Assembly: GCA_028717885.1 (NCBI GenBank)
Contig: JAQUMX010000001.1
Span: 42,409-106,408, forward strand
Reading direction: 5' to 3'
DNA length: 64,000 nt
Source of the DNA: Candidatus Omnitrophota bacterium
GTDB lineage: Bacteria; Omnitrophota; Gorgyraeia; Gygaellales; Profunditerraquicolaceae
The position numbers and the translations under genes are program-made. How positions within the stretch are numbered: position 1 is the stretch's first letter; the number at the start of each line of letters is the position of its first letter. Below the pieces are notes generated by a model. The model had not been told where the DNA came from. It was given only the letters and a program-made list of their open reading frames with translations, and searched no databases. This document shows positions 39,097-57,829 of the stretch, piece by piece.

Positions 39097-39292
39097 CTAT
39101 CAGCCTTAAAGTCTCTTTCGCTTTTTGCGGATCAATTTTCTGGATCGCAAAACCTGCGTGTACCAAACAATAGTCGCCTACTTTTGCCTGAGGGAGCATA
39201 GAAATATTTATTCTACGGGTAAGCCTTCCGGTCTCTACCTCGGCAAATTCGCCCTTAATCTGTTTTATTTTCATGGGGATAGCCAAACACAT
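39083..39292 (-). CDS. hypC: HypC/HupF-family chaperone
   Basis: 69 aa beginning MCLAIP, the diagnostic N-terminal Cys2. Confidence 0.8.
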   Translation of the reverse strand: MCLAIPMKIKQIKGEFAEVETGRLTRRINISMLPQAKVGDYCLVHAGFAIQKIDPQKAKETLRLIDEIR

Positions 39293-39293
39293 C

Positions 39294-42434: not shown

Positions 42435-43227
42435 CTATTCTGAAAGAACGTTCCTCATTGCGTAAAGAACAGTAACCGATAACATAGCTGACTCCTCTTT
42501 CCTGCTTGATTTCCCTAGGAGTTACCTGCCTTTCCGTAACCTGGGCATTTACCGAAGAAAGGTATTTAATCTTTAATTTCATTTCCCGGGCAATTGCTTC
42601 CTCGATTTCAGCGATTCTCTGGGCATTTAAGTCCTGCAGGAATTGCGGGTTAAGCGAAAAAAGGCGGGAAAAATTCCTAAAATCGCTTACCCCCTGGGAA
42701 ATCAACTTTTCTTTTAAGTGTTTAAAAACCAACCAGGTAATCTCTACGTCGGAAAGCGCCCGGTGCTGCTGTTGCTGCTTGATTCCTAAATGCTGCACCA
42801 CAAACCAAAGCGCATAGCGCTCTAATTTAGGTAAGAGCCTTCTCGCCATTTTTAAAATATCCAGGACAATGATCTCTTTAGGAAATTCACTTTTAATAAT
42901 CCTGGCTTCATTTTGCATGAATTCCAGGTCAAAAGAGGCATTGTAGGAACAAATACAGCTGCCTGCGATAAATTTCAAGAATTCCGGCATTACCTCTGTA
43001 ATCTTCGGCGCATCCCGAAGCATTTCTTTACTGATTTTATTTACCGCGAAGGCCCCAGGAGAAACTTCTCTTTCCGGATTAACCAAGGAGGAAAAAACAG
43101 CCAGCTTTTCTTCTCCCTTAAACCTGATTGCCGCGATCTCTACCACCCGGTCTCCTGCCCGCGGCTCTAATCCGGTAGTTTCCGTATCAAAAATAGTGAA
43201 TTCTACTTCTTCAATTAGCCTGTCCAT
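42406..43227 (-). CDS. DEDDh 3'-5' exonuclease (DnaQ/epsilon-like) with C-terminal extension
   Basis: Exo I motif FTIFDTETTGL, Exo II and III (HRALSD) motifs; 273 aa. Confidence 0.75.
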   Translation of the reverse strand: MDRLIEEVEFTIFDTETTGLEPRAGDRVVEIAAIRFKGEEKLAVFSSLVNPEREVSPGAFAVNKISKEMLRDAPKITEVMPEFLKFIAGSCICSYNASFDLEFMQNEARIIKSEFPKEIIVLDILKMARRLLPKLERYALWFVVQHLGIKQQQQHRALSDVEITWLVFKHLKEKLISQGVSDFRNFSRLFSLNPQFLQDLNAQRIAEIEEAIAREMKLKIKYLSSVNAQVTERQVTPREIKQERGVSYVIGYCSLRNEERSFRIDGILHLEIV

Positions 43228-44122
43228 TTTTTTTCACGATTAACGCGGGAATCAGCCTGAGCGGCTTGTAAGAAAATTTTACCTGCTCAAGATTTTTTAA
43301 ACCGGAATCATCCATTACATTGATATATTTAAAATTTTTTGCCCGAACGCAGAATTCCTGAAAAATAAATTGCGCTATCCCCTTAAAAGAAAGGTCAGCC
43401 ACTTCATAGAGGACGCAAAATGTTTGCCGGTTTAATTTATAGCCTACGGTAAAAGCACGCACCTTTCCTCTGACTTTCACTACCAACCCTTCACAGCCCA
43501 GTGAATCGAAATTACGCAACAAAACTTTTAAAGCACTAAAGCTATCTTCCAGCATTCCCTGATAAACATGATCGCAATTTAGTTTAGCGCGCTGCTTTGC
43601 CCAGGCGTGATATAAATTAAGGCATTCATTGCGATGAGAATTCTTGAGGCTATCGACTTGAAATTCATTATGCTTTAAAAAGTAGTTTTTGCTGGAACGC
43701 TTAGATTTAAATTTATTCCCTTTTAATTCTGCCAGGTCACTGCGCGCACAAAGGTAATCAGAGGATTTCTTTTCGATAGATAGCCCCAGAGAGCGGTAAA
43801 AATCCAAATCCTTCTCTTCTACGTTTTCGATGCGGGAAATTTCCTTGTTTTTGTTCAATCCATCCAGTGTTTTAAAAATCTCCTGGACCAAACCGGGGGT
43901 TAATTTTTTTGTGAGCGGCCCCAGGTATAAAAATATACCGAAATTGTCCTTAAAAAAAATGCAGAGGCTCTCTTGAACTAAAGCCCAATATATCCGGAAC
44001 AACCCTTTCCAGATATAAATATCGGCAAAAGAATAAACAGCAAGCTCGTGGCTGGATAGTTTTAAAAAACGCTCGACAAGTGACTTATTCCGGAGTGTCA
44101 GCCTATTTAGTTTCATCCTCAA
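43211..44122 (-). CDS. DUF2156-like (MprF C-terminal / aa-tRNA-dependent GNAT-fold transferase-like) protein; assignment tentative
   Basis: 303 aa. Size and bipartite pattern resemble DUF2156. No strong motif could be verified by eye. Confidence 0.3.
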   Translation of the reverse strand: MRMKLNRLTLRNKSLVERFLKLSSHELAVYSFADIYIWKGLFRIYWALVQESLCIFFKDNFGIFLYLGPLTKKLTPGLVQEIFKTLDGLNKNKEISRIENVEEKDLDFYRSLGLSIEKKSSDYLCARSDLAELKGNKFKSKRSSKNYFLKHNEFQVDSLKNSHRNECLNLYHAWAKQRAKLNCDHVYQGMLEDSFSALKVLLRNFDSLGCEGLVVKVRGKVRAFTVGYKLNRQTFCVLYEVADLSFKGIAQFIFQEFCVRAKNFKYINVMDDSGLKNLEQVKFSYKPLRLIPALIVKKNGQAN

Positions 44123-44609
44123 TATTTAATTCAATAATTTCGGAAACTTCTTCGTAAGCAACAAGGAGCTGGGGATTTTCGTGTAAAATCTTTTTTTGCT
44201 CCGGAGAGTCAAGGAAAGCGGCCAGGTATTCGCTGTAATCTTTGAATTCTTTACTCTTTAAATTTTCTTTGACGTAAGGGCAATTCAAATCTACGGTCAA
44301 GAGCACTTTTTTATTGCGTAAATTGATTAAAAACGGATACAGCTGGCATTCAAACGGCCGGCAGGAATAGATACGGCATTGGTTTTGCCTATTTAAAAAC
44401 GGGCAGATAAAACCTTCCCCCTCGGGGTTAGCAACAGGATTGATCCTTTTATTCAAAGAAATCGTGCAGGCAGGCAAATTTTCTTTCTCTAAAAGCGCCT
44501 GTACTTCCTCGTCCAAAAGGCAGGGCGCCCAGACGGAATTCTCCTCCCGAAACCTGCAGCAGCCTTGGCATTTTAAACAAATTTCCTGAGGGACAAATTG
44601 CTCTATCAT
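44103..44609 (-). CDS. YkgJ-family Cys-cluster protein (CxxCxxCC)
   Basis: N-terminal CLKCQGCCRF plus additional Cys (CPFLNRQNQCRIYSCRPFECQLYP). Confidence 0.6.
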   Translation of the reverse strand: MIEQFVPQEICLKCQGCCRFREENSVWAPCLLDEEVQALLEKENLPACTISLNKRINPVANPEGEGFICPFLNRQNQCRIYSCRPFECQLYPFLINLRNKKVLLTVDLNCPYVKENLKSKEFKDYSEYLAAFLDSPEQKKILHENPQLLVAYEEVSEIIELNIEDETK

Positions 44610-44995
44610 TTTACGACGCTTCCTAATTTAACCTCTTTTTGCGGGCTAACTACCACAATCCCGTTTTCATCGGAAGCAGCCAGGATCATCCCCTGGCTTT
44701 CCACTCCCCGTAAGATCGCCGGCTCTAAATTATCTACGACTACCACTAATTTCCCGACTAAGTCTTCTTTTTGATAATAGGCCCTGATGCCTGCCACAAC
44801 CTGTTTCTGCCTATCGCCTAAGTCCAAAGTCAAAAGATAAAGCTTATCCGCATTCGGATGATCCAGGACTTCCTTGATTTTGGCGACCCTTAATTCCAAT
44901 TTTCGAAAATCTTCGATTGTAATCATTAAAGTCCTCCCTATTTTTCTTTTTTTAACTAAAGCTGAACGGAATTTATTTATGCGGGGAGCCGTCAA
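44606..44995 (-). CDS. tRNA-binding-domain protein (Trbp111/CsaA/EMAP-II-like OB fold)
   Basis: 129 aa with LELRVAKIKEVLDHPNADKLYLLTLDLGD...QVVAG, the hallmark of the standalone tRNA-binding domain. Confidence 0.7.
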   Translation of the reverse strand: MTAPRINKFRSALVKKRKIGRTLMITIEDFRKLELRVAKIKEVLDHPNADKLYLLTLDLGDRQKQVVAGIRAYYQKEDLVGKLVVVVDNLEPAILRGVESQGMILAASDENGIVVVSPQKEVKLGSVVK

Positions 44996-46121
44996 TCATT
45001 TCTGCGCGGGCATGAGCAACCTCGCAGAAATATTCTACCGGGGTATCCATCTTCCCAGTTTCTAAATGCGCATGGGCAGGGCACCAGATACAAAGATTAA
45101 CCAATGAACACTTGCGGCACTTATCCAAAAATGCTTTATTATCCGAACGCAGGTCCCTGACCTGCAGCACGAATTTTTCCCAAATCTGGCTTAAATCTCC
45201 TGTTTTTAAATCGCAGATGCACTGCGGATGCCATAATGAAGAACAAAGGCGGAAGTACCCTTCGTAACTGACCGTGAAACTACCGTTACCGGTTCCACAA
45301 TGAAAAAGATGATTGCAATTAAAATGCTCGAATTCCGGGTTGATCAATTCATTGCAGCCCTTCCTTAAAGCCCCGTAGCGTTCATCGTCCGCTTTTTCTA
45401 TCGCTACGATTTCTTTCGGAGAAAGCCGTTCGGATTTAATCTCTTCGTTGCGCTTTGGATTTGCATCGAAGCGCAAATGCAAAAACGGATCGAAGCGAAA
45501 ATAATCTTTCGTCCTCTCCCGGCAAAATTCGGAAATTAAAGGCAGCTCATGCACATTGGAGCGGATTGCCATTGCCTTATAGCGCACCTTAATCCCGTTA
45601 TCTAGGAGCATCTTCAAGCCCCGCATAAAAGCCTTAAAAGAGCCCTTTTTATTGCTTACCTTTTCATATGTTGCTTCGGTAACGCCGTATACCGTTACTT
45701 CGATATCCCGGGGAGGGTATTTTTTAAAAAGATCGATGTGTTTCTGCGTAATCAGCGTGGCATTGGTAAAAACCGAAATAAACAACCCCTTCTTCTTAAG
45801 GTACATATAGATTTCAAAAAAATCTTCCCGCAAAAGCGGTTCTCCTCCGGTAAGCAAACACCAGAGTGCGCCCAAGGAAACTGCCTGGTCGACGATTGCC
45901 TTGATCTGCTCTAAAGGGATTTCTTTTTTCTTCGCCTCTAAATCGTTTTGAGGCAGGTTAATGTAGCAGTGCCGGCAATCGTTGTTGCAGCGGGCGGTCA
46001 GTTCCAAATCAAATGAAATGACATTGCGCTGGTTGCGCATTTTTTCCCAGACCGGGAATTCAGGCAATGACATGCTGGAAACAAACATTTCGTTGTTTTG
46101 CGGTTTTTCTTCTTCCATCAT
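44973..46121 (-). CDS. Radical SAM / SPASM-domain peptide-modifying enzyme
   Basis: CNNDCRHC cluster motif near the N-terminus; C-terminal Cys-rich SPASM region (CGTGNGSF...C...CRKCSLVNLCIWCPAH). Confidence 0.8.
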   Translation of the reverse strand: MMEEEKPQNNEMFVSSMSLPEFPVWEKMRNQRNVISFDLELTARCNNDCRHCYINLPQNDLEAKKKEIPLEQIKAIVDQAVSLGALWCLLTGGEPLLREDFFEIYMYLKKKGLFISVFTNATLITQKHIDLFKKYPPRDIEVTVYGVTEATYEKVSNKKGSFKAFMRGLKMLLDNGIKVRYKAMAIRSNVHELPLISEFCRERTKDYFRFDPFLHLRFDANPKRNEEIKSERLSPKEIVAIEKADDERYGALRKGCNELINPEFEHFNCNHLFHCGTGNGSFTVSYEGYFRLCSSLWHPQCICDLKTGDLSQIWEKFVLQVRDLRSDNKAFLDKCRKCSLVNLCIWCPAHAHLETGKMDTPVEYFCEVAHARAEMIDGSPHK

Positions 46122-46633
46122 AGTATAGGTTTAAGGACCTTTCTGATTTTAATGGGGATCCTTCTCCAGCACCAGACCAAAGTAGGAAGGATTCTTTCCC
46201 GGCTTAAAAAAACAATCAAGGTCTGTTCTTTACCTAGCCCTAAGCGCACGGCTTTGCCGTTACGCTCGATTTTCGAAACAAACCCCAGCATATTTTTTTT
46301 AGGGATAAAACCATCAGGATAAAAAAGGCTGTCCCCCTTAATCAGGTAATGTTCCGGAAAATCTTTGATCACCCTGTGGATAATCAACTTTTCCGCGCAA
46401 GGATGAATAAAAGCAACTGCTTTTCCAAAAACCGATTTTGCGCTGGACAAGGGTGAAATCGTCACAATATCCCCGTCACGGATAAAAGGCGACATGCTAA
46501 AACCTTTTACCTGAAAACGGAAAAACGCCCTTTTTTCCAATGTTGCCAGCATCAACTCAGATAGCGCCTTGCCGGAAAGAAATAACTCTTCATCGCTGAC
46601 AACACAAAATTCTGACCTATTTTCCAATTTCAA
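46118..46633 (-). CDS. S24/S26-family serine peptidase (LexA/signal-peptidase-like), possible leader peptidase
   Basis: KGFSMSPFIRDGDIVTISP matches the S24/S26 catalytic Ser region. Lys-containing downstream segment. 171 aa. Confidence 0.5.
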   Translation of the reverse strand: MKLENRSEFCVVSDEELFLSGKALSELMLATLEKRAFFRFQVKGFSMSPFIRDGDIVTISPLSSAKSVFGKAVAFIHPCAEKLIIHRVIKDFPEHYLIKGDSLFYPDGFIPKKNMLGFVSKIERNGKAVRLGLGKEQTLIVFLSRERILPTLVWCWRRIPIKIRKVLKPIL

Positions 46634-46925
46634 CGAGCATATTCCTTTTCATTAACTCCTGGGTAAACCCAAGAATATCCTGTTCTATGTCGCTTGTACC
46701 GCTTTCAAAATCGCTGCTTAAATCTTTGGCAATTACTTTTAATGTTTTTTTACCATCCATCCTGTCCCAGATCGCCCTCCCGGTTTCATTCAGGGTAAAT
46801 ATTTCATCCTCCAGGTCGCCGATTCCGCTGGTGATAGGGATAATGATAAATTCTCCTTGTACCTGCCGCGCTACCACATCTTCACTGGGTTTATAAACTT
46901 TTTCGATGCTCACCTTTTTCTCCAT
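46617..46925 (-). CDS. PqqD-family protein (RiPP recognition element)
   Basis: 102 aa with the PqqD pattern (...FTLNETGRAIWDRMDGKKTLKVIAKDLSSDFE...DILGFTQELMKRNMLV). Confidence 0.7.
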   Translation of the reverse strand: MEKKVSIEKVYKPSEDVVARQVQGEFIIIPITSGIGDLEDEIFTLNETGRAIWDRMDGKKTLKVIAKDLSSDFESGTSDIEQDILGFTQELMKRNMLVEIGK

Positions 46926-46934
46926 ACCACCCTC

Positions 46935-48116
46935 CTATATTTTCCTCGCACACAAATTATCGATTCTTTCTTTCCAATTCTCCACTTCCCAAGCCCGTTC
47001 GTCCTCTCCCACTAACCCTAAAAACCTTGCCTGGGCATGGGCAATTTGGCAAAGATAGTCGCTCGGCGTATCCAGCGTGCCGTATTCCGACCAGGATTTT
47101 GCCGGGCACTGCTCACAAAGCCCTTTTAAAAAACAACGGGCGCAACGATCCAAATAATCCTTATTTTTCGCCCTGATTTGCCGGACCTTAGGGAAAAAAT
47201 TAGTCACTGCGTCTTCCAATGTCCCTTTAGATAGGTCATAGGTAGTTTGCGGATGCCGCAACATCATACAGGGCTGGAAAAAACCGTAAGCATCTACGCA
47301 CCCGCTGCAATTGCCGGAGCCGCAGGAAAAAAGGTTATCTGCGGATGCGCGCATAAATTTAGAGCAGAATTCCTGCATGCCTTTGATATATTCGTCTTTT
47401 TTCCGGGTCAAAACTCCCAAGCCCTCTTCTGCAGAAAGCCTTAATTTTTTAATCTGCTCGCTCTTGGCATCCCGCCTGCAGCGTAAATCAAAAAACATCG
47501 AATATGACGGCGGACGGTTATCCATCCAGGGGATCTTTTTTGACCAGGCTTCGAATTCTTCGATTTCATTCTTATTCTCATTGAGCAAAGCGCCTTTTAC
47601 CACAAAAGGGACTTTGTTTTCCCATAAAAGATTGATCCCGCGAAAAGCAGCCGCATAAGACCCTTTTACCTGGGTCACTGCTTCATAGGATTTTTCTTTC
47701 ATTCCATAAACAGTCACTTCCATTTTTTCCATAGGAGGAATATGTTTAAATAATTCTATCCATTTTGGGGTAATCAGCGTGGCGTTGGTAAAAATCATCA
47801 CCTTTAGCCCCAGCCTACGGGCAAAAATGTAAAGCTCTTTGAAATCTTCCCTTAAAAACGGCTCTCCGCCGGTAAACCTGACGGTCATGCACCCTAAATC
47901 CGCGGCTTCCTTAAGGATCTCTTCGATCCTTTGCGTCGAAAGCTCTCTTTTTTTGGCCGCAGGGTCATCCTTGGATAAATTAATACAGCAATGGACGCAA
48001 TTATTATTACAGCGTTCCGTCAACTCGATATCCAACCAGCCTAAAACCGGGCCGCTGCCTTTACTAAATTGCGGAGCACTTGCATTTACTATTGAAACGT
48101 AAGATTCGTTCTTCAT
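46935..48116 (-). CDS. Radical SAM / SPASM-domain peptide-modifying enzyme
   Basis: CNNNCVHC; C-terminal SPASM Cys cluster (CGSGNCSGCVD...C...CARCFLKGLCEQCPA). Confidence 0.8.
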   Translation of the reverse strand: MKNESYVSIVNASAPQFSKGSGPVLGWLDIELTERCNNNCVHCCINLSKDDPAAKKRELSTQRIEEILKEAADLGCMTVRFTGGEPFLREDFKELYIFARRLGLKVMIFTNATLITPKWIELFKHIPPMEKMEVTVYGMKEKSYEAVTQVKGSYAAAFRGINLLWENKVPFVVKGALLNENKNEIEEFEAWSKKIPWMDNRPPSYSMFFDLRCRRDAKSEQIKKLRLSAEEGLGVLTRKKDEYIKGMQEFCSKFMRASADNLFSCGSGNCSGCVDAYGFFQPCMMLRHPQTTYDLSKGTLEDAVTNFFPKVRQIRAKNKDYLDRCARCFLKGLCEQCPAKSWSEYGTLDTPSDYLCQIAHAQARFLGLVGEDERAWEVENWKERIDNLCARKI

Positions 48117-50068
48117 AATTTTTTTAAAATCCCCACGATTTCTTTATCTTTATTAAACCTCTGAATATAACAGGGGACATTTTCTACGATATCATCAACC
48201 AGGACCAAAGTTTTATCCCACCAATCCGTAGTGACAAAAGGCTTGATCAGGCAGCTTAAAACCCTCTTTGTCGCCTCATTTTTATCCTTAAGAGGGATCA
48301 GCCTGTTTTCCTTGGCCTTTTCCAGAAAAAGCAAAGCCGTAAGCGGAACGGATTTCCCGGAAACCGTGGGGCAGTCCCCGTGGCTCCAGGTACCGTATGC
48401 CTTGAAATCATTTTTGCATTTACGCACGATAATCCGGTCATCACAAAGTATCTGCGCGTCGTCTTTCAAAATATTCGCCATGGTAGTTTTTCCGGCTTCG
48501 GAGTGGCCGACAAAAAGCAAACCCTTGCCGTTAAGGTCGACTCCGCAAGCATGCAAATAACAGCCTTGCCTGTCCGCCAAAATGCGCGCAATCAAAATCT
48601 GATCCGTAGGAAAGAGAGTCAAAGAATGCAAATCCCCTTTACGGAAATATTCGTCTTCGGTATTGTAGATCCTGGCGCTGGTATGGTCATGATTAAAAAC
48701 AGCAACCCGGTGCAAACTTTTATCTTCTGCCTGGGGCGAGATGCCTAAATATATCCAGGAAGAATTATTTTTATAAACTGCCCAGGGAGGCTTGCGGTAA
48801 AATTCCTTGCCCAATTCTTTTTCTTTTAATTCCGGAAGCGAAAAATGGTGCCTGATGCTGACGATATCCTTGCCGGGCTTGTCAGTAGCAAATAAGTTGA
48901 ATTTAGGATGAAAGGTCTTTCCATCCATCGGAACATCTGCCTCTACCTGAATGGTAATATCTGCGATATTAAAATAGCGTCGGTGGGTCATTATCCAATC
49001 CTCCTTGAATTTTTCATTCTCCCTGGCCGCATCACAAAGATAATCTATTTTTGCGTCGTATCTGCCATGTTCCAGGTAACTGTATACCGGGCAGATCCGG
49101 CAATTCTGCCGCTGCGCGCAGGACCCGCAGTTCTCTTCATATTCTTTGGTAACTTTAATTTTTTTTCCTAACGAAGGAATAAAATTTTCCCATCCTTCCT
49201 CGAAGGTGCCCTTGCGCAGGTCATAGCGCATCTTTGGATCCTTTAAAAAGCAGCAGAATGTCATTCCTCCGTAAGGATCGACATGAAAATCCCTGCGCAT
49301 CGCTACACAAGAACCAAAAAGATATTCTTCCTTGCTGTCATGGCAATAGCGGTGGCCAGCTTCGCGGTGCATCTGGTCTTCATATGATAAATCCGGCTTG
49401 TCTAGCTCAATGACTTCTTTGGCAGGTAAGCGTTGGCGGATAATTTCCTCATTTATTTTTTTGTCTGCGCAAGCGGAAAGATACAACCATGCAGCTCCCA
49501 CACGGTAATGCTTGCTTAGAGATTCGGCTAATTTAACCATCTCCTGAAATTGATGGTAATTATCGCGCATAGGGATCAACTGCACGATAAAACCGGCGCC
49601 TGCTTCTTTAAGATAGCGAAACCCACGCATGGTCTGCTCGAATGAACCGGGGTTACGCGTAATGCGATCGTGCACTTCGGCGGTAGCTCCGTAAATCGCC
49701 ACCATTTTCGCGCCTTTTTTCTTTAAAAGCTTGGCGATTTTAGGCGTAATTAACGCACCATTGGTATTAATAGAATAAGAATTCGCATTACTGGTAATAT
49801 ATTCGAAAATTTCCGTAAAATCCTTGCGCAACATCGGTTCCCCGCCGGAAATCGACCACCTGCGGCAACCCATTTTCTTGGCATCGGAAACCAGTTTCTT
49901 GATTTCTGCTAAGCTAAGCTCATTTTTCGCTTCTTTGGCATCGGGACCCACCCGTAACCAGCAATGCCGGCAATTATTATTGCAGCGATAGGTTAGATCC
50001 AAACTTCCTTCGAGCGGAAGGCGCGGAAGGATAAATTGTTGTTTTACCTCAGAATATTCAATAGACAT
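48113..50068 (-). CDS. Radical SAM / SPASM enzyme fused to a C-terminal HPr-kinase-like P-loop domain
   Basis: N-terminus CNNNCRHC plus SPASM Cys cluster. C-terminal ~250 aa with FVGHSEAGKTTMA Walker-A in an HprK C-terminal-domain-like context. Confidence 0.7.
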   Translation of the reverse strand: MSIEYSEVKQQFILPRLPLEGSLDLTYRCNNNCRHCWLRVGPDAKEAKNELSLAEIKKLVSDAKKMGCRRWSISGGEPMLRKDFTEIFEYITSNANSYSINTNGALITPKIAKLLKKKGAKMVAIYGATAEVHDRITRNPGSFEQTMRGFRYLKEAGAGFIVQLIPMRDNYHQFQEMVKLAESLSKHYRVGAAWLYLSACADKKINEEIIRQRLPAKEVIELDKPDLSYEDQMHREAGHRYCHDSKEEYLFGSCVAMRRDFHVDPYGGMTFCCFLKDPKMRYDLRKGTFEEGWENFIPSLGKKIKVTKEYEENCGSCAQRQNCRICPVYSYLEHGRYDAKIDYLCDAARENEKFKEDWIMTHRRYFNIADITIQVEADVPMDGKTFHPKFNLFATDKPGKDIVSIRHHFSLPELKEKELGKEFYRKPPWAVYKNNSSWIYLGISPQAEDKSLHRVAVFNHDHTSARIYNTEDEYFRKGDLHSLTLFPTDQILIARILADRQGCYLHACGVDLNGKGLLFVGHSEAGKTTMANILKDDAQILCDDRIIVRKCKNDFKAYGTWSHGDCPTVSGKSVPLTALLFLEKAKENRLIPLKDKNEATKRVLSCLIKPFVTTDWWDKTLVLVDDIVENVPCYIQRFNKDKEIVGILKKL

Positions 50069-50127
50069 GCTTGTTGGGTACCTCTAGAGCTCAAAAGATG
50101 GGCCTGTTTATTTCAAAAGGCGCTTAA

Positions 50128-50170
50128 CTGCTATATTATACAATAGATTAAGATATTTTAAAGGGTTTTT
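50128..50170 (-). promoter_or_regulatory. Putative sigma70-type promoter (extended -10 TTGTATAAT) between the small ORF and the radical SAM genes
   Basis: Minus-strand reading: TTTAAA-16nt-TGTATAAT, then AGAGGT RBS before the ATG at 50068. Confidence 0.3.
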
Positions 50171-50215
50171 TCCGGCAAATCAATTACTTACCAGGAAAAA
50201 CGCCCTTATATTCCT

Positions 50216-50416
50216 TTATGAGTTTGCCATCTGGTCACACCAATTGCCGCCGCAATATCTTTCATTGAAAAAATGATAACATCCATAGTCTTTACCGTCA
50301 GGGCCCGATAGAGGATATACATACTTGCAGGATCGCAGTATATTCTCCTGCCTATGGCTTTCTCTGGCCAGAATAACAATCTTTGGCCTTAACCATTTTT
50401 TCTTTCTCTGAAACAT
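50216..50416 (-). CDS. Candidate RiPP precursor peptide: 66 aa, basic leader, Cys-rich core, C-terminal Ser
   Basis: Strong RBS (AAGGGAGGT, 5 nt before the ATG). Sequence ...RSCKYVYPLSGPDGKDYGCYHFFNERYCGGNWCDQMANS. Sits between the ABC exporter and three radical SAM/SPASM genes. Confidence 0.45.
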   Translation of the reverse strand: MFQRKKKWLRPKIVILARESHRQENILRSCKYVYPLSGPDGKDYGCYHFFNERYCGGNWCDQMANS

Positions 50417-50469
50417 CTATACCTCCCTTGTGTTTACCATTTAAAGATTTAGTTGTCTTTTATAGCGCC

Positions 50470-52200
50470 TTAATCGGTCTGATTTTGAAAAAATTCCCGG
50501 TAATCCTGGCTGGCTGACAAAAGTTCTCTGTGGGTGCCGGTTTCCATCTGGCTGTCCTTTTTAAGAAAATAAATCCTATCTGCATCTTTTACCGAAAAAA
50601 GGCGGTGAGAAATAATCAGCGTGGTTAATCCTGCTCGCTGTTCTTTAAGATTATTGAATATCTTCTCTTCGGTCTGAGAATCTACGGAAGAGGTGGCTTC
50701 ATCTAAAATTAAAAGCCTGGGTTTCCTGAGAATTGCCCTTGCCAAAGCTACCCTTTGTTTAAACCCCTGAGAGAGCCGAAAGGCATCTTCCCCAATCAGG
50801 GAATCAAATCTGTCCGGCAATTGGCTGACAAAATTGTCAATACAGGTGATCCGCGCCGCATCTTCGATTTCCGCTTGAGAAACCCCCTTTAAACCATAGC
50901 AGATATTCTCTTTTATCGAAGCATCGAATAAAAACGGCTGCTGAGTGGCAATAGCGATATTTTCTCTTAAGTCCCTGATTTTAATCAGTTTTAAATCCTG
51001 CTGGTCTAAAATAACCTCCCCTTTCCAGGGATCATACAGCCGTAGGATCAAATTAAAAAGCGTGGTCTTTCCGCATCCCGAAGGGCCGACAATCCCTGCC
51101 CAGGAAAAAGCCGGGATATGAAAATTTAACCCCTTAAAAACAGGGGCGTTTTCTTGATACCCGAACCAGACGTCTTGAAAAATAATTTCTCCGCGCACAT
51201 TTTTTACGCTTTTTGCCTGAGGCAGGTCACGTACTTTTGGCCGTGCATGTAAAACCTCGAATAACTTTTCCAGAGAAACCGATTCCTGTACAAAATTCCG
51301 TAACCTAAACCCCATCGATTCCAATAAGCCGCCTAGTTGCGTCAGGTAGATCATTACTGCTGTGTAGCTACCCAAGGTAAGGCCGCCCTTGATAATCAGC
51401 CATCCGCCGTAGAGGGTGATTACTCCGAAAATTGCCTTGGAGAGAAAGCTGGAAGTGATGGAGCTAACCAGCCCCCAGCGAAAACTTTTTATCCTCCAGC
51501 GTATATTTTTGATCAGAGAATCAAGGTACCTGTGCCTTTTAAAATTCTCCAGGCCCAGTGCTTTAATAATCAGGATTTTGGAGAATGCCTCATTCAGTTC
51601 TTTATAAAGATAGGCGCTGAACCTCCAGATCTCTTCATAAATCGGCCGTAGTTTATTTTGGATGTAAAAACTCTGGATAAGAAAAAGCGGGCTTAAAATT
51701 ACCAACAGGACGGTCATGCGCAGGTTTAACCAGAGGCAGATTCCCAGGATCATGACCATCTTAACGATATCGCACAAGATCTGCGGGCATTGTTCAAGCA
51801 AAAAATTAGCCACAATTTCCGTATCAGACAGCCTGAAGAGGTTTTCTCCGATAGATTTACTGTAGAAAAAAGAGATGTCCTGGGAAAAGAATTTTCTGAT
51901 CAGCTTATGGGATAAATTTAGGCGCAATTTTACGGAGATGCGGTTTTTCACGATATCGCTTGCCAGCGTGAATAGAGTACTAAAAACAAATACTACGGCG
52001 CCCCAAAACGAGAGGCTTAAAAATTTTCCCAGGTCCTTTCCCAGGAATGCCTTATCGATAAAAAGCTTAGAAAAATAAGGGCCGATAAGAAAAAACAGAG
52101 AGGAAAGAAAAGAAAGAAAGAAAAGCACCAGGATTTGCCTTTTATAAAGCAGGACAAACCCCATTAAATTCCTGATTTTCGTTTTTGTTTCCGCTTTCAT
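50470..52200 (-). CDS. ABC exporter, fused TMD-NBD (type I exporter, peptide/lipid export family)
   Basis: 576 aa; six N-terminal TM helices; Walker A GPSGCGKTT, signature LSQGFKQRVALARA, Walker B LLILDEATSSVD. Confidence 0.8.
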   Translation of the reverse strand: MKAETKTKIRNLMGFVLLYKRQILVLFFLSFLSSLFFLIGPYFSKLFIDKAFLGKDLGKFLSLSFWGAVVFVFSTLFTLASDIVKNRISVKLRLNLSHKLIRKFFSQDISFFYSKSIGENLFRLSDTEIVANFLLEQCPQILCDIVKMVMILGICLWLNLRMTVLLVILSPLFLIQSFYIQNKLRPIYEEIWRFSAYLYKELNEAFSKILIIKALGLENFKRHRYLDSLIKNIRWRIKSFRWGLVSSITSSFLSKAIFGVITLYGGWLIIKGGLTLGSYTAVMIYLTQLGGLLESMGFRLRNFVQESVSLEKLFEVLHARPKVRDLPQAKSVKNVRGEIIFQDVWFGYQENAPVFKGLNFHIPAFSWAGIVGPSGCGKTTLFNLILRLYDPWKGEVILDQQDLKLIKIRDLRENIAIATQQPFLFDASIKENICYGLKGVSQAEIEDAARITCIDNFVSQLPDRFDSLIGEDAFRLSQGFKQRVALARAILRKPRLLILDEATSSVDSQTEEKIFNNLKEQRAGLTTLIISHRLFSVKDADRIYFLKKDSQMETGTHRELLSASQDYREFFQNQTD

Positions 52201-53285
52201 TTTAGCAATTGGCTATATATACCTTCTAAAGATTCTACTATATTATCCCAGTTATAGCCAGCGGCAATTCTTTTTGCTTCCAGGCCTTTTTGCTTTACCA
52301 CTTCCGGATGGTTAATCAGATATTCAAGCTTATTTCTTAAGTCCCGGGCATTGCCTTTCTGAAAATAAACCCCTGCGTCTTTTAAAACTTCTTTGAACTC
52401 CGGGATATTGCTTACCAACAAGCATTTAGCGAATGAAGCAGCTTCCAACATCGAGAAAGAAAGCCCTTCAATCTCAGAAGGAAAAACCGCCAGATACGCC
52501 TGGCTATAAAAAAAATCTAGCGCCCTACTGTCAACTTGCCCTACAAAAACCGTATTTTCTCCTGCTATGCTTTTCAAATATTCTAAATATTTTTTCGCGA
52601 ATGCAGCATCCCCGGCAATCACCAGCTGAAAATCACTCTTTAGCGCCTTAAAAGCCGTAATCAGGCAATCTATGCCTTTCTCTTCGGTGATCCTGCCGGA
52701 AAACAGAATGAATTTGGCATTTTTCCATCCGGCGTACTGCGGCCCAATCTCCGGAGTAGCTTCCTTTAAATTAATGCCGTTAGGAATATAGGTTGCTCTG
52801 CCGGCAAACATTTTTTCCATATTTTTCGAAACCACGATCGTTTTGTCGGCAAAATAGAGCGCGGGGAACTGGCAAGCCCAAAGAAAAATTTTTGCGAACC
52901 ACGGCCATTTTTTTCTTTTCCAATCTAAAGCATGGATCGTTACTACCGTTTTTTTTCCAAATATCCTGGGTAGAAAAGAAAAAACCGACGGCCCCAGGCA
53001 ATGATAGTGCACTATATCTACCTTACGAAACAATACATCGGCAGTGGCAAAAAATGAGGCGATAAAAGTAGCAAGGTATTTATTCTTTAACGTCGGAGTT
53101 TCGATTACGTTCACCCGGGGAAAAAGCTCTTTTTTTCTGAAAACACGCTGCAAATTCTCTGCATGGCCATAGACAATAAATTCCGCATTCTTTAAAGAAA
53201 GCCTTTTTACTGTCTCTTCAATATTCCTCTCTACCCCGCTGTAACAAGCAGGAATCCCCCGGGAACCGATAATAGCAATTCTCAT
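52197..53285 (-). CDS. GT-B fold glycosyltransferase (GT4/GT1)
   Basis: 362 aa; C-terminal EGLSFSMLEAASFAKCLLVSN EX7E-type region. Confidence 0.75.
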   Translation of the reverse strand: MRIAIIGSRGIPACYSGVERNIEETVKRLSLKNAEFIVYGHAENLQRVFRKKELFPRVNVIETPTLKNKYLATFIASFFATADVLFRKVDIVHYHCLGPSVFSFLPRIFGKKTVVTIHALDWKRKKWPWFAKIFLWACQFPALYFADKTIVVSKNMEKMFAGRATYIPNGINLKEATPEIGPQYAGWKNAKFILFSGRITEEKGIDCLITAFKALKSDFQLVIAGDAAFAKKYLEYLKSIAGENTVFVGQVDSRALDFFYSQAYLAVFPSEIEGLSFSMLEAASFAKCLLVSNIPEFKEVLKDAGVYFQKGNARDLRNKLEYLINHPEVVKQKGLEAKRIAAGYNWDNIVESLEGIYSQLLK

Positions 53286-54496
53286 TTATTTTTTACGCTC
53301 ATCTCTCCGGCGCCTGCTGTCACGCTTAAAATCGCCAGGAAGATCCAGAACAAATAAAAGGTTGTCTGCCATAATAAGCCGTCAAACGCAGCCATATTAA
53401 TCAGCAGGCCCAAAAAGCCCAAAAATAAAGCGCTCTGGCGGTTTTTCCATGCCTTTTTAAAAACAACACCTAAAAGAAGCATTAATCCCAAAAAGCCCAA
53501 CAAGCCTGTTTCTGCTAAATGCATAAGATAAATGCTGTCCGGCACTCTTACTTCCGGATTAAGCCGATAACGCGTAAAATTTGCGGCAAATTCCCGGTAA
53601 TGATTTAATCCGATTCCCACAAGAGGATGGTTTTTTAAAACATCCCAGGTAATTAAATAATTCTTTGCCCTGTGGCTAAATCTGACATAATAAAACAGCC
53701 TGACTATCCCGAAGCGTTTGGAAAAACCTGGCCCAAAAATCGAGAATGCGCTCAGAATAGAAAAAAACAAACAACCCAGCCAAAGATAAGAAATCCATTT
53801 CTTTTTGCCTACTTGCCAGAGCCAGAAAGAGCAGATCAGTAAACCAGCAAACCATGTCCCGCGGGAAAAGCTTAAGATAATCCCCGCTACAATCAGGCAA
53901 AAACAAGCTAGGTTAAAGAGTTTAAGCCTGTAAGTTGGGGCGTTACGGTAAAAATAATTCGCCAGGGGCGCACAACCGATCAAGTATGCTCCCACAATAT
54001 TCGGATGCACCAAAGTTGACATTACTCTCTTGCCGATGAAGCGTAGATAATACGGATTATCCAACAAATACAGATAAACAGGATTGGCTTTAAAAAACAT
54101 TTCTAGAATGCCTAAAAGCGAAACGATCCCTGCGCAAACTACCAAACAATAGAGTATTTCCTGATAGTCCTTTGATTTGGCTACCTGCCGGAAGATAAAA
54201 AATACCGAAGCGGCACTAAGGCAGAAATCCTTATAAAAAACAAAGGCCTGATTTGAAGATAACGCTCCCGGCAAAAGCAAAAGGAAATATGCGCCCAGAA
54301 CCGCTGCCGAAGGATTTAAAAAATATTCCCGGAAATTAAAACGCTGTTCGATTAAAGAAAGCAGAAAAAGCATGCCTAATCCGAGATTAAGCTGTAGTTT
54401 ATACTGCGCCTGGAACGGATCCGGCACAAAAGAGATCCAACAGATAAAGAAAATTAAAGACAGCTTGATTATCCGGCGTAAACCTCCTCTTAACAT
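53282..54496 (-). CDS. O-antigen ligase/polymerase (Wzy_C)-like membrane protein
   Basis: 404 aa, ~11 TM helices, large loop with HLAETGLLGFLG-type Wzy_C pattern. Confidence 0.6.
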   Translation of the reverse strand: MLRGGLRRIIKLSLIFFICWISFVPDPFQAQYKLQLNLGLGMLFLLSLIEQRFNFREYFLNPSAAVLGAYFLLLLPGALSSNQAFVFYKDFCLSAASVFFIFRQVAKSKDYQEILYCLVVCAGIVSLLGILEMFFKANPVYLYLLDNPYYLRFIGKRVMSTLVHPNIVGAYLIGCAPLANYFYRNAPTYRLKLFNLACFCLIVAGIILSFSRGTWFAGLLICSFWLWQVGKKKWISYLWLGCLFFSILSAFSIFGPGFSKRFGIVRLFYYVRFSHRAKNYLITWDVLKNHPLVGIGLNHYREFAANFTRYRLNPEVRVPDSIYLMHLAETGLLGFLGLMLLLGVVFKKAWKNRQSALFLGFLGLLINMAAFDGLLWQTTFYLFWIFLAILSVTAGAGEMSVKNK

Positions 54497-54499
54497 CTG

Positions 54500-55822
54500 C
54501 TACTCCTTCATCCCTGTTGTCAAAGCAGCCAGCAAGCCGCAGTAAATCCAGAACATATATAAAGGCACTACCCACAATAAAGCATCAAAATAAACCATCG
54601 CAAACAGGATAATCAAAAACCCGGAACTTAACGCCAAAACAAGGCCGGAATCGCTGCGCTTAGCCCGGATATATTTTACGGCATCCCGCATTAAGATATA
54701 AATAAAAAAAACAAAGGAAAGGAAAACGATTACTCCCCCTTCAGCCAAGATCGTCAAGTACATATTATCGGCGATTTTGGCATAATCACGCTTAATTTCA
54801 GGGTTATAAAAACCATAATATGAGCGGAATTGCGCCAGCCCTACTCCGGCAAAAGGATGGTCCTTAGCCATTTGTAGCGCAATTTTCCAGTTATTTGCGC
54901 GCGAATTGGAGTCAACTAACATGCCGATACTAAACCTGAAAAATACAGCGCCCACCCGCGATGTGGGATTGAATTTCGTAATCAGCGTAGAGAATAAAAC
55001 CAAGGTCACAAAAATCAGGATAATATGGCGCCACATTTTTCTATTTTTGAAAAAGGCATAGAATAAAGATGCTGCCAAAACAGCGAGAAACACTCCCCGG
55101 GTAAAAGTAACAAAAACCCCGGCGCCGATCGTAATCGTCATTATCCCGGCAATTAAACGCTGCTTCTTCCTTCTTTCCGCAATAAATGCCTCGAAGAAAA
55201 GCGGCAAGAGCGCCCCAAGAAAAACCCCCAAGACCTGCGGCACTGACTGAGTAGCCATTGCGCGGCGCTGAAAGAGAAAAAACAGGTAAAAAGCATTGTA
55301 AATTAGTTTTTCGAAAATCAGATTCCGGTCAAGAATGAATTCGACCACGGCAAACCCGGCCACAATCAAGGCAAAAACACCAAATAATGCCAAGAATGCT
55401 TTTTTGTTTTTCGATAGGGGGAATTCATTTTTAAATAAGAAGTACAAAATGGGGCCGGGTAAAACGAATTTGACAAAACAGGATGCGGCGGCGGGCCTAT
55501 CTTTTACCCAAATCAGATTAAAAGAAAGAATTGCCAAAAATAAGACCACTAAGAAGTCTTTTGTTCCGAAACTGGCGATTCTTCCGGCAAAGACAGAAAC
55601 AGCCAACCCGATCAACAGCATAATAAGTATAGGCGTACTGCAGCTTGAATAAAGCGCTTCCGGTAAAAACGATAGCCAAAAAGCCAAGAACAGGCAAATC
55701 ACCGAGAAGGCCCCCGACGAATATCCCTGCAACTTATGCCTTGCCGACAAAGAACCTGGAAAAATGCCTTTCATAAAATGAAACCCTCCATAGGTAGAGA
55801 AGAAAATCCAGCGGATTATCAA
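54500..55822 (-). CDS. O-antigen ligase/polymerase (Wzy_C)-like membrane protein
   Basis: 440 aa polytopic; loop YLTILAEGGVIVFL similar to the neighbour. True start may be an internal Met, which would reduce the overlap with the upstream gene. Confidence 0.6.
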   Translation of the reverse strand: MIIRWIFFSTYGGFHFMKGIFPGSLSARHKLQGYSSGAFSVICLFLAFWLSFLPEALYSSCSTPILIMLLIGLAVSVFAGRIASFGTKDFLVVLFLAILSFNLIWVKDRPAAASCFVKFVLPGPILYFLFKNEFPLSKNKKAFLALFGVFALIVAGFAVVEFILDRNLIFEKLIYNAFYLFFLFQRRAMATQSVPQVLGVFLGALLPLFFEAFIAERRKKQRLIAGIMTITIGAGVFVTFTRGVFLAVLAASLFYAFFKNRKMWRHIILIFVTLVLFSTLITKFNPTSRVGAVFFRFSIGMLVDSNSRANNWKIALQMAKDHPFAGVGLAQFRSYYGFYNPEIKRDYAKIADNMYLTILAEGGVIVFLSFVFFIYILMRDAVKYIRAKRSDSGLVLALSSGFLIILFAMVYFDALLWVVPLYMFWIYCGLLAALTTGMKE

Positions 55823-56822
55823 AAAGCAATAAACGCAGTACCGCCCCTTTCCATCTTCTAAAAAAGAAAAAGTTCTGCCGGTTCAAGATTGCGCCTAATA
55901 AAAACTTCTTTACCGGGCAAACTTTAAATTTTGACGCGGTTAAATCCGGGATTTTTACCCTGAGTAATTCCTGGCAAAGATAAAGCACAAAATACACAGA
56001 ATTAAAAAAGTGGTTTTTGCGCGCATTATCCCGGATATAATCCCAGTCCAATATTTGCCCATGTTTTTTCAATAATTCTGCGATATCTACCAACGAATTT
56101 AAAGTAATATCCCGGATATGCCTGCGCAGATGCAAGGTTAAGTAAAGAAAATTATCCTCTTTTGAAAGGCTATAAATTTCACGGCCTGCCGCAATAAGTG
56201 GCTCCGCCCTCTCCCAGGCCATAGGCAGCCTCAAAACATATGGCCTGCTAGGCAGGAGCTTCCAATGCACATCGATATAAATATACTGCTCCTTAAAAAC
56301 TTTTTTGGAAAACATCAATTCATATTCGCCTTCCTGCACGCAATGCTTTACTGTTTCCTCGTTTGCTCGATATCCCGATTGAAGGAAAATTTCTTTTAAA
56401 GGCAAAAGCTCATGCCTGGCAATAAACAAGTCTACATCAACCATGATTCTTAAAGCATGGTCCTTGTATAAAGCATAGACCAGCGCCAAGCCTTTAAGCA
56501 GGATAATCTTAATTTTCTTATCCGATGCTAATTCCAGAATGCGAAAAATTTCTTTTTCCAGGACTAAATTTCGTTGCAGGTTTGCCAGGTAGATTTGCTT
56601 CAAAGAAACCATTGTCCCCGAGGGAATATGGTTTGACTGGCTAAATTTTTCGAGATTTACATACAATAAGGGGCTGAGTTTCTCTTTTTCGGCGATCTGT
56701 TTTATTTTTTCCCAGTCTAATGGCAGGGCTAATAAGGCGTTTAATTCTTTTTGCGCGGATTCTTCGAGGCTAAGCGAGGCACAGAGCAGGATTAATTTTT
56801 GTTCATCAGGAATTTTTGGCAT
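55734..56822 (-). CDS. Uncharacterised nucleotidyltransferase-family protein (NTP_transf_5-like)
   Basis: 362 aa; the family is frequently found beside PqqD/HprK-like genes. Central MVDVDLFIARHEL resembles the nucleotidyltransferase Asp pair region. Confidence 0.45.
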   Translation of the reverse strand: MPKIPDEQKLILLCASLSLEESAQKELNALLALPLDWEKIKQIAEKEKLSPLLYVNLEKFSQSNHIPSGTMVSLKQIYLANLQRNLVLEKEIFRILELASDKKIKIILLKGLALVYALYKDHALRIMVDVDLFIARHELLPLKEIFLQSGYRANEETVKHCVQEGEYELMFSKKVFKEQYIYIDVHWKLLPSRPYVLRLPMAWERAEPLIAAGREIYSLSKEDNFLYLTLHLRRHIRDITLNSLVDIAELLKKHGQILDWDYIRDNARKNHFFNSVYFVLYLCQELLRVKIPDLTASKFKVCPVKKFLLGAILNRQNFFFFRRWKGAVLRLLLFDNPLDFLLYLWRVSFYERHFSRFFVGKA

Positions 56823-57826: not shown

Positions 57827-57829
57827 ACA

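Follow-up and report, generated by a model that had tools for sequence, protein, structure and literature searches.

We analyzed a stretch of 64,000 nucleotides from Candidatus Omnitrophota bacterium (assembly GCA_028717885.1, contig JAQUMX010000001.1, positions 42,409 to 106,408 of the forward strand). This whole stretch is called the window below, and the positions given are those of the window. The gene at 48113-50068 encodes a protein in which a radical SAM/SPASM enzyme is followed by a P-loop domain resembling HPr kinase, and a gene for a small cysteine-rich peptide lies next to it. The original prediction, which was made from the nucleotide letters, had proposed that the two enzyme parts are covalently joined. 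This was borne out by the 651-residue frame, the match to PF04055, the seven SPASM cysteines and the fold of the C-terminal domain, which is that of HPr kinase/phosphatase (HprK/P) and phosphoenolpyruvate carboxykinase (PEPCK). The features of the fused gene and of the adjacent precursor gene are as follows.

48113..50068, minus strand: radical SAM/SPASM-ScmC fusion gene, putatively bifunctional; 651 residues, ATG start, single uninterrupted frame
49526..49996, minus strand: radical SAM core, residues 25-181 (Pfam PF04055, E 3e-24)
49961-49984, minus strand: CxxxCxxC cluster motif, C29/C33/C36, invariant in alignment A1
49034..49309, minus strand: SPASM-type auxiliary-cluster region, residues 254-345, with seven invariant cysteines
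48116..48982, minus strand: ScmC domain, residues 363-651 (289 residues), assigned from PF27840 on the identical protein P0001, TIGR04249, AlphaFold and Foldseek
48485..48508, minus strand: Walker A P-loop GHSEAGKT, residues 521-528, aligned with GDSGVGKS of HprK/P
48434..48445, minus strand: CDDR motif, residues 542-545, aligned with the catalytic Asp-Asp of ADDR in HprK/P
50216..50416, minus strand: precursor peptide gene, 66 residues (leader hidden Markov model (HMM), E 6.6e-16; ribosome-binding site)

In the N-terminal part of the fusion protein, residues 25-181 scored 86.5 bits against PF04055, for which the cut-off is 29.5. Across 24 full-length homologues, the alignment showed no variation at C29, C33 and C36. 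In the GGEP motif at residues 75-78, GGE was invariant and the Pro nearly so. The SPASM cysteines C254, C272, C314, C317, C323, C326 and C345 were also invariant, and their arrangement, C-x(n)-G-x4-C ... CxxC-x5-C-x2-3-C ... C, is the seven-cysteine pattern of an enzyme with two auxiliary clusters. The Pfam SPASM HMM applied to the region alone remained below its threshold (14.8 bits vs 21.5, E 0.036), and we therefore based the SPASM assignment on the cysteine pattern and on an alignment that covers the whole length of SPASM paralogues. In the window, the three radical SAM/SPASM domains are paralogues, with 30-31% identity over their full length. Because the CxxxCxxC motif, GGE and the seven SPASM cysteines are all invariant, the N-terminal 362 residues are, as far as sequence can tell, a complete radical SAM/SPASM enzyme.

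The C-terminal domain, which had been estimated at about 250 residues, was found to comprise about 289 (residues 363-651), and the motif quoted for it earlier, FVGHSEAGKTTMANIL, lies at residues 519-534 of the fusion protein. The database protein P0001, which is 100% identical to the fusion protein, carries PF04055 and PF27840. The latter bears the name ScmC in the gene tables of related loci, and the standalone relatives of the domain all carry it; the assignment of our domain to PF27840 comes from this precomputed annotation of P0001 and not from our own Pfam scan. Among the NCBIfam models, the best match of the domain was again ScmC (TIGR04249; E 1e-11, 44.7 bits), although the match is confined to profile positions 121-232 of 292 and stays below the equivalog cut-off of 125 bits. 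HprK-related kinase B (TIGR04355, E 1.8e-6) and HPr(Ser) kinase/phosphatase (E 2e-5) came next. When 30 aligned relatives were scanned, these three models matched 30/30, 29/30 and 18/30 of them, respectively, and TIGR04249 was the top NCBIfam match for all 30 (best E 1e-13).

The models of HprK proper gave lower scores. Pfam Hpr_kinase_C (PF07475) matched weakly and locally, with 18.1-19.6 bits against a gathering score of 33.3, and TIGR00679 (HPr kinase/phosphatase) gave 24 bits against a cut-off of 240. By these profile scores, the domain falls outside HprK/P in the strict sense and is closer to ScmC and HprK-related kinase B. The AlphaFold model of the domain, calculated from a 30-sequence alignment, had a mean predicted local distance difference test score (pLDDT) of 88.4 and a predicted TM-score (pTM) of 0.86, and it showed two subdomains, of which the N-terminal one is rich in beta structure and the second is an alpha/beta P-loop subdomain. 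A Foldseek search of this model against the PDB returned 47 matches at E <= 0.001 (probability 0.99-1.00, TM-scores 0.2-0.5), and each of them was either an ATP-dependent PEPCK or an HprK/P. The domain thus shows the P-loop kinase fold that is shared with PEPCK.

The catalytic residues were then compared by sequence and profile alignments, in which YLH-x-x-GV...GHSEAGKT...CDDR of the ScmC domain superposed on MHGVLV...GDSGVGKS...ADDR of HprK/P. H506, which lies upstream of CDDR within YLHACGV, and K527, D543 and D544 aligned with MH, GKS and DD of the structures 1jb1 and 1ko7. These four residues were invariant or nearly so in the alignments of fused and standalone proteins alike, and the Walker A residues G521, S523, A525, G526 and K527 were invariant. 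A conserved and essential His-Lys-Asp-Asp set has been described in a review for the HprK-like kinases that tailor lasso peptides (PMC9266682); the matching of that set to the HprK residues is our own reading of the alignments. These comparisons indicate that the domain is a P-loop domain of the HprK/PEPCK superfamily with an intact catalytic set, and a member of Pfam ScmC. The HprK-like identity given in the original prediction therefore stood as to fold and motif alignment, which the AlphaFold model and Foldseek confirmed, but not as to family, since the HprK cut-offs of Pfam and NCBIfam were not reached and ScmC was nearer.

A subgroup of standalone ScmC proteins (P0207, P0230, P0239, P0240, P0198 and P0202) has about 37 inserted residues, among which Arg, Ser and Trp are frequent. 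The insertion is located in the N-terminal beta subdomain (alignment A2, columns 112-148), and P0239 is labelled Desulfobacterales.

At least 120 full-length homologues of the fusion protein were found. The best 120 had 626-692 residues, 63-81% identity, a query coverage of 96-100% and an identical two-domain annotation; they came from NCBI, JGI, ENA and Logan assemblies, and mostly from Omnitrophota. The residues at the domain junction, H362, R363 and R364, were invariant among the 24 aligned full-length homologues. We then counted the complete ScmC-bearing open reading frames (ORFs) in 79 loci, taking one genome per species, and found 63 fused and 11 standalone. A survey of 80 metagenome loci fetched with a standalone-ScmC query gave 56 fused-only and 14 standalone-only loci. 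Both sets are the best 80 of larger match lists and are phylogenetically clustered, and the distinction between fused and standalone is uncertain near contig ends. The fusion is the majority form among these closest ~160 loci, from Omnitrophota to methanogenic archaea.

Taking the taxa as labelled for the metagenome-assembled genomes, fused genes occurred in bacteria assigned to Omnitrophota, Planctomycetia, Victivallales, Syntrophorhabdales, Chlorobiaceae, Geobacter, Desulfomonile, Acidobacteriota, Chloroflexota, WOR-3, Saganbacteria, Margulisiibacteriota and Calditrichaeota. The archaeal fused genes were labelled Methanothrix/Methanotrichaceae, Methanoregula and Methanomicrobiales. The original prediction had considered kinases of this kind to be normally standalone and the fusion to be exceptional. 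This holds for the clusters of lasso peptides and of linear polyphosphorylated peptides (LPPs), in which the kinase is described as a separate gene product (PMC9266682, PMC13381572), but not for the ScmC family, where fusion is in the majority among the closest relatives in both collections.

The ScmC domain alone had 5967 relatives at E <= 1e-3, counted as clusters at 50% identity. The best 150 of these clusters included about 17 full-length fusions and about 10 apparently truncated fusions, and the remainder were mostly standalone proteins of about 300 residues or fragments. The standalone proteins were 50-69% identical to the fused domain and were interspersed among the fused ones in a neighbour-joining tree. 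It is therefore probable, as judged from this tree, that the fused radical SAM domain was gained or lost repeatedly. In two loci, L039 and L150, a fused and a standalone ScmC gene lie on one contig, and L150 also has a second tandem cassette.

The precursor gene in the window is preceded by a strong ribosome-binding site, GGGAGG, before its ATG. The leader of the peptide is KKKWLRPKIVILARESHRQENILRS and the core is CKYVYPLSGPDGKDYGCYHFFNERYCGGNWCDQMANS, which contains four cysteines and ends in a Ser located six residues past the last Cys. The precursor did not match any Pfam or NCBIfam model. Its leader is common to small cassette-adjacent ORFs of the loci L001, L003, L004 and L005, and an HMM was built from the leaders only of these five sequences. 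This HMM detected 113 unique precursors in the genome set, spread over 62 loci, and another search with it gave 86 in the metagenome set; the unique cores amounted to 188 in total. The leader consensus is KKxWxKPxLIVLVRGKPEExVLxxCK. Its WxxPxL core, which reads W-L-R-P-K-I in the window, fits the motif [Y/W]xxPx[L/V/I/F/A], that is, the leader motif bound by discrete lasso-type RiPP recognition elements (RREs; RiPP, ribosomally synthesized peptide with post-translational modifications) (PMC13381572).

The core is hypervariable except for the cysteines and the last residue, and its typical form is C1-K-x14-17-C2-x4-8-C3-x2-3-C4-x5-Ser. The C-terminal residue was Ser in 160/188 cores and Thr in 16/188, about 94% together, whereas Ser is the last residue in 12% of random small ORFs from these loci. 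The last Cys was exactly 6 residues from the end in 70/75 and 65/78 cores of the two locus sets. A third precursor set showed the spacing of 6 between the last Cys and the terminal Ser in 116/120; this set was obtained with a profile that included the core, so that its count of C-terminal Ser is partly circular, and we regard it as supportive only. A search of 5.8 billion proteins with a precursor profile found 393 family members, and among the best 120 of them none had a Pfam domain and every given name was 'hypothetical protein'. By analogy with known kinases of lasso precursors, the terminal Ser is likely to be the candidate phospho-acceptor of the ScmC domain.

Some other observations were made on the precursor genes. 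In the window, an overlapping ORF of 57 residues (50206-50379) was rejected as the precursor, and so was a 57-residue ORF of the gene caller in L003; the conserved leader occurs only in the 66-residue frame 50216-50416 and in L003:9649-9852, respectively. The public gene call in L003 (L003:9552-9852, 57 residues, frame 1) lies upstream of the fusion gene and overlaps and hides the true precursor ORF at 9649-9852, which may be one reason why the family has stayed unannotated. Precursors are expanded in single cassettes, with 10 cores in L022:8974-16609 and 8 in L037:2261-12801, and their leaders are nearly identical. A different, second precursor type of 72 residues, with the leader KYETPKLVSL, six cysteines and a terminal Thr, occurs at L001:11240-11458 and adjoins the second standalone ScmC gene and the second PqqD gene of that locus.

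The fused gene and the precursor gene belong to a cassette, and the other genes in and beside it in the window are listed here.

44973..46121, minus strand: third radical SAM/SPASM maturase, 382 residues, ScmF-like paralogue (profile matches, cassette position)
46118..46633, minus strand: S24/S26 peptidase of the archaeal signal-peptidase-I type, 171 residues, candidate leader peptidase (PF00717, TIGR02228)
46617..46925, minus strand: discrete PqqD-family RRE, 102 residues (PF05402, E 2e-13)
46935..48116, minus strand: second radical SAM/SPASM maturase, 393 residues, ScmE-like paralogue (conserved cassette position)
50470..52200, minus strand: MsbA-like ABC exporter without an N-terminal peptidase domain, 576 residues (Pfam/NCBIfam)
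52197..55822, minus strand: family 4 glycosyltransferase (GT4) and two Wzy_C (O-antigen-ligase-like) membrane proteins, between the exporter and NTP_transf_5
55734..56822, minus strand: NTP_transf_5 protein, 362 residues (PF14907, E 2e-52)

The order (radical SAM-)ScmC, radical SAM, PqqD, S24 peptidase, radical SAM recurs in the ~160 loci. The precursor gene or genes take a variable position in or beside the cassette, and the exporter and NTP_transf_5 genes are often adjacent. In the window, the stop of the fusion gene and the start of the next radical SAM gene overlap by 4 bp. The PqqD protein gave a full-length but sub-threshold match to the lasso PqqD chaperone NF033536. The peptidase scored 24.9 bits against PF00717 (gathering score 23.3), had TIGR02228 sigpep_I_arch as its top NCBIfam match (E 2.3e-9) and showed the motifs GFSMSP and IIHRV, and the matches of the exporter to bacteriocin-type exporters began at about profile position 140. 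The NTP_transf_5-like gene, which had been predicted at 55734-56822 and taken for the usual partner of such kinases, was confirmed by PF14907. Its role as a partner gained support from its recurrence beside the cassette: it was seen in 29/83 loci, many of them truncated or short, and it adjoins the cassette in L001, L003 and L004, directly so in L003. The membership of the GT4 and Wzy_C genes in the cluster is uncertain; the related loci likewise lie amid polysaccharide genes (Poly_export, GNVR, PMT_2 and glycosyltransferases), a setting also reported for LPP and paeninodin clusters. Neither a lasso macrolactam synthetase (C) nor a B2 cysteine protease was found among the cassette genes by Pfam and NCBIfam domain scans.

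Loci with a standalone ScmC gene typically have two radical SAM genes only (L005, L023, L049, L057, L074, L082, L111 and L140). The fused radical SAM domain is therefore usually an additional, third maturase and not a joining of ScmC to one of the usual two. We compared the number of radical SAM domains with the number of cysteines in the precursors. In the fusion loci, which have three radical SAM domains, 123/134 precursors had 4 or more cysteines. In the standalone-only loci, with two radical SAM genes, 16/18 precursors had 3 or fewer. Fisher's test gave p = 1e-12, without correction for shared ancestry. Within the single locus L150, the precursor that comes after the fused gene has 4 Cys and the one that comes before the standalone gene has 3. 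The additional cysteine is part of the C-x2-3-C pair directly upstream of the x5-Ser tail, and the C-x5-Ser tail itself was found in both cassette types. On the simplest reading of these sequences, the fused radical SAM domain would process the extra cysteine and the C-x5-Ser tail would go with ScmC.

Three loci require comment in this count. L112 seemed to be an exception that combines a standalone ScmC gene with 4-Cys precursors, but it was left out because a truncated fused gene is also present where its contig ends. L085 and L086, which were fetched to enlarge the standalone set, have fragmented radical SAM genes and are apparently error-prone assemblies; the single precursor of L085 (2 Cys) was counted among the standalone-locus cores, and L086 was left out.

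Among the known systems, the cassette can be compared with the SynChlorMet (SCM) cassette, which consists of ScmC, ScmD (PqqD) and the two radical SAM/SPASM proteins ScmE and ScmF (NCBIfam TIGR04248-TIGR04251, Pfam PF27840). Both bring together an ScmC-type domain, a PqqD-family protein and PqqE-like radical SAM/SPASM proteins. However, the window proteins score far under the equivalog cut-offs (ScmC 44.7/125, ScmD 30/100, ScmE ~80/400, ScmF 85-98/400), and the window cassette adds a third, ScmC-fused radical SAM/SPASM domain, the S24/S26 peptidase, the exporter and the NTP_transf_5 neighbour. By these profile matches it is a sister of the SynChlorMet cassette. To our knowledge, the SynChlorMet database entries name no precursor. 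In the literature, we found no paper or experiment on ScmC or SynChlorMet, the matches to 'ScmC' being unrelated acronyms only, and nothing for the SCM/ScmC family accessions or for HprK combined with SPASM.

The gene set also resembles that of the LPP clusters which Popov et al. (Nat Commun 2026) found in Bacillota. These comprise an SpI-like peptidase, a discrete RRE, a kinase resembling HprK, an NTP transferase and an exporter resembling MsbA, and they lie in polysaccharide loci (PMC13381572). All five parts are present in the window, within 44973-56822, together with the leader motif [Y/W]xxPx[L/V/I], and the window cluster likewise lies amid glycosyltransferase and Wzy genes. In LPP biosynthesis, LppK polyphosphorylates Ser3 of the core, and the precursor without phosphate is cleaved poorly (PMC13381572). 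There are also differences. LPPs are linear and the term 'radical SAM' is absent from the LPP paper, whereas the window adds three radical SAM/SPASM domains and Cys-rich cores. The LPP kinase is standalone, and that of the window is fused. LPPs have the leader motif YxxPxVLxHQxIxFETxxS, whereas the leader here follows the consensus given above and the Cys-rich cores are accompanied by 2-3 radical SAM/SPASM maturases. Finally, LPPs and paeninodins are stated to be restricted to Bacillota (PMC13381572), while the hosts here are anaerobic bacteria of many phyla and methanogenic archaea.

The precedent for the acceptor residue comes from lasso peptides of the paeninodin type. The kinases PadeK, ThcoK, SyanK and PsmK phosphorylate, often repeatedly, a conserved C-terminal Ser of the lasso precursor, and the nucleotidyltransferase homologue PsmN adds a hexose to that phosphoserine (PMC9266682). 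These systems share with the window a kinase of the HprK superfamily, a C-terminal Ser on the precursor, the His-Lys-Asp-Asp set and a nucleotidyltransferase-like partner. In contrast, the window cassette showed no lasso cyclase or B2 protease in the domain scans and its kinase is fused; the relatedness of the lasso kinases to ScmC was gauged by an indirect route, the TIGR04355 model of HprK-related kinase B (best E 1e-9). In lasso and LPP clusters the HprK-like kinase is a protein of its own, whereas ScmC is fused here and in most of its close relatives. HprK/P and ATP-dependent PEPCK themselves share with ScmC the P-loop fold class and the aligned motif MH...GxSxxGKS...DD(R). ScmC differs from HprK/P in that it fails PF07475 and TIGR00679, has another, beta-rich N-terminal subdomain, and is found in the context of RiPP maturation and not of carbon catabolite control. 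A precedent for a peptide kinase domain inside another RiPP maturation enzyme is given by the cyanobactin macrocyclases DolG/AphG. Their kinase domain is of the eukaryotic type (PF00069), prefers Tyr and acts late on cyclic peptides (PMC12639078), and it is unrelated in fold to ScmC/HprK.

We consider it highly probable that the fusion protein is a genuine bifunctional maturase and that its ScmC domain is catalytically active on the adjacent precursor. The coupling of cross-linking and phosphorylation, which had been suggested earlier, stays the best reading, with the chemistry taken by analogy from the systems described above. From the observed domain anatomy, the conservation of the catalytic residues, the gene set, the precursor family and the correlations, we propose the following steps, every one of which is conditional. 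The discrete PqqD protein would hold the precursor (50216-50416) through its WxxPxL leader. The three paralogous radical SAM/SPASM domains would cross-link the cysteines, most likely to thioethers, with roughly one radical SAM enzyme per cysteine after the first, and the N-terminal domain of the fusion would act on the additional cysteine in the C-x2-3-C pair close to the C-terminus. The ScmC domain, with ATP, would phosphorylate the C-terminal Ser six residues past the last Cys, as HprK-like kinases do on paeninodin-type lasso precursors. The NTP_transf_5 protein may afterwards decorate the phosphoserine, the archaeal-type signal peptidase would cut off the leader, and the MsbA-like pump would export the product. 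The fusion would thus unite in one polypeptide two enzymes acting on the same C-terminal segment. For this mechanism as a whole, in which a ribosomal Cys-rich peptide is both cross-linked by radical SAM chemistry and phosphorylated by ScmC at its terminal Ser, we judge the prospects to be evenly balanced.

Several results weigh against this proposal. The sequence similarity to HprK is limited to about 60 residues and lies under every curated cut-off, the TM-scores of the Foldseek matches are modest (0.2-0.5), and the AlphaFold model of the full-length protein is mediocre (pLDDT 70.7, pTM 0.54) and uninformative on the packing of the domains. The phosphorylation by ScmC is argued by analogy only. 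Moreover, the phosphorylated Ser of LPPs is residue 3 of the core whereas the conserved Ser here is C-terminal, so that the position of the acceptor cannot be transferred from LPPs and its precedent is the C-terminal Ser of the lasso precursors. The NTP_transf_5 gene lies 6 kb away in the window, beyond the glycosyltransferase and Wzy genes, and was unseen in most of the loci, which are often truncated. The correlation of the cysteine count ignores shared ancestry, and it has exceptions in L061, L120 and 11 precursors of fused loci.

One alternative is a role of ScmC other than catalysis, namely that the kinase fold is reused as a docking or chaperone module, dependent or not on nucleotide, by which the C-terminal end of the core peptide is kept in place for the radical SAM domains. 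Such a repurposed binding module had been named earlier as an alternative, and we consider it unlikely. It would agree with the NCBIfam name of TIGR04249, 'SCM_chp_ScmC', whose description gives no function, with the local and sub-threshold similarity to real kinases, and with the beta-rich N-terminal subdomain, which has no assigned role; the fixed C-x5-Ser tail would suit a binding determinant, too. However, the Gly and Lys of Walker A, the His and the two Asp do not vary among the 24 fused proteins, nor among 29 further, mostly standalone relatives with 54-69% identity to the window domain, which is hard to explain without catalysis. Since the catalytic residues are conserved in this way, an active kinase is favoured over a dead binding module. 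In addition, leader binding is already supplied by the discrete PqqD protein, and the homologous HprK-like proteins of RiPP clusters are proven kinases.

If the ScmC domain is an active kinase, its acceptor could still be a Ser/Thr elsewhere in the peptide, or a small molecule, or one of the carriers (sugar or lipid) that belong to the neighbouring polysaccharide genes. The example of LppK, which targets Ser3 of the core and not the C-terminus, points in this direction, as do the best structural matches, which are PEPCKs acting on small molecules, and the location of the cassette amid GT4 and Wzy genes both here and in related loci. Nevertheless, besides the leader, the initial Cys-Lys and the later Cys, the terminal Ser/Thr is the sole conserved feature of the core, and ScmC tracks the precursor and radical SAM genes far more tightly than the polysaccharide genes do. 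We therefore think that a different acceptor is improbable.

It is also conceivable that the phosphorylation of the terminal Ser is transient. That is, the phosphate might be lost by elimination, or the activated residue might undergo attack, and the last Cys and the terminal residue would then be joined in a ring of fixed size, in a product that carries no phosphate. A fixed-size covalent ring would explain why the terminal Ser almost always lies 6 residues past the last Cys (70/75, 65/78 and 116/120). There is a parallel in class III/IV lanthipeptide synthetases, which activate Ser/Thr through a kinase domain. On the other hand, no lyase-like domain was seen among the cassette genes in the domain scans, the recurrent NTP_transf_5 points to a lasting phosphate that is decorated further, as in pseudomycoidin, and the radical SAM/SPASM enzymes already account for the cross-links of the cysteines. 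Taken together, we give this explanation little credence.

Finally, although standalone ScmC genes exist, it is excluded that the fusion is an assembly or frameshift artefact joining two genes, given the single uninterrupted frame, the more than 120 independent full-length homologues of the same length and architecture from varied samples and sources, the fused ORFs in 63 and 56 loci of two independent collections, and the invariant junction at H362, R363 and R364.

What makes the locus interesting is the system more than the fusion, which by itself is a common architecture of the family. The cassette is widespread and catalogued in databases but experimentally uncharacterised. It appears to be a relative of the phosphorylated lasso and LPP systems in which radical SAM enzymes cross-link the peptide and which extends across both bacteria and archaea. 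Phosphorylated RiPPs are rare. They have been documented for lasso peptides, LPPs and a few cyanobactins, and those of the HprK type have been described as confined to Bacillota. If ScmC is a kinase of the precursor Ser, the same tailoring would operate alongside cross-linking by radical SAM enzymes in Omnitrophota, Planctomycetota, Desulfobacterota, Chlorobia, Chloroflexota and methanogens. The SynChlorMet cassette of the databases also gains from these results a candidate substrate family and a testable rule that ties the cysteine count to the count of radical SAM domains. The fused enzyme would be a compact starting point for biochemistry, because it offers two activities, one precursor and a defined acceptor residue.

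As a wider and more tentative speculation, in which our confidence is limited, these peptides may form a large RiPP class of many anaerobic bacterial phyla and methanogenic archaea. Its members would have cross-linked C-K...C...C(xxC)-x5-Ser cores with a phosphorylated, possibly glycosylated or nucleotidylated, C-terminal Ser. One radical SAM enzyme would serve each Cys after the first, and the fusion would couple the last cross-link to the phosphorylation of the tail. If this is true, the class would be a cross-linked, cross-domain counterpart of the Bacillota-restricted LPP and paeninodin phosphopeptides.

We also made some observations on the surroundings of the cassette. In the 147-bp gap between the precursor gene and the fusion gene, there is a promoter-like site at 50135-50162 on the minus strand with 10/12 consensus matches, and it could allow expression of the enzymes separately from the precursor. 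Directly upstream of the NTP_transf_5 gene, genes for a PHO4-family phosphate transporter and a PhoU_div (DUF47) protein are located at 56834-58456 on the minus strand; a link to a phosphorylating pathway is possible, but the arrangement may be a coincidence.

Downstream of the cassette, the window carries at 38008-44995, on the minus strand, genes with tRNA_bind, CxxCxxCC, LPG_synthase_C and RNase_T-WYL annotations, followed by HypF-like and HypD genes. The same gene order is found in L001:16021-20894, minus two window genes (40382-42434). The cassette of L001 is split and has two standalone ScmC genes, two PqqD genes and one glycosyltransferase gene. The downstream order shared by the window and L001 with its split cassette therefore suggests that the cassette has been remodelled at a fixed chromosomal site.

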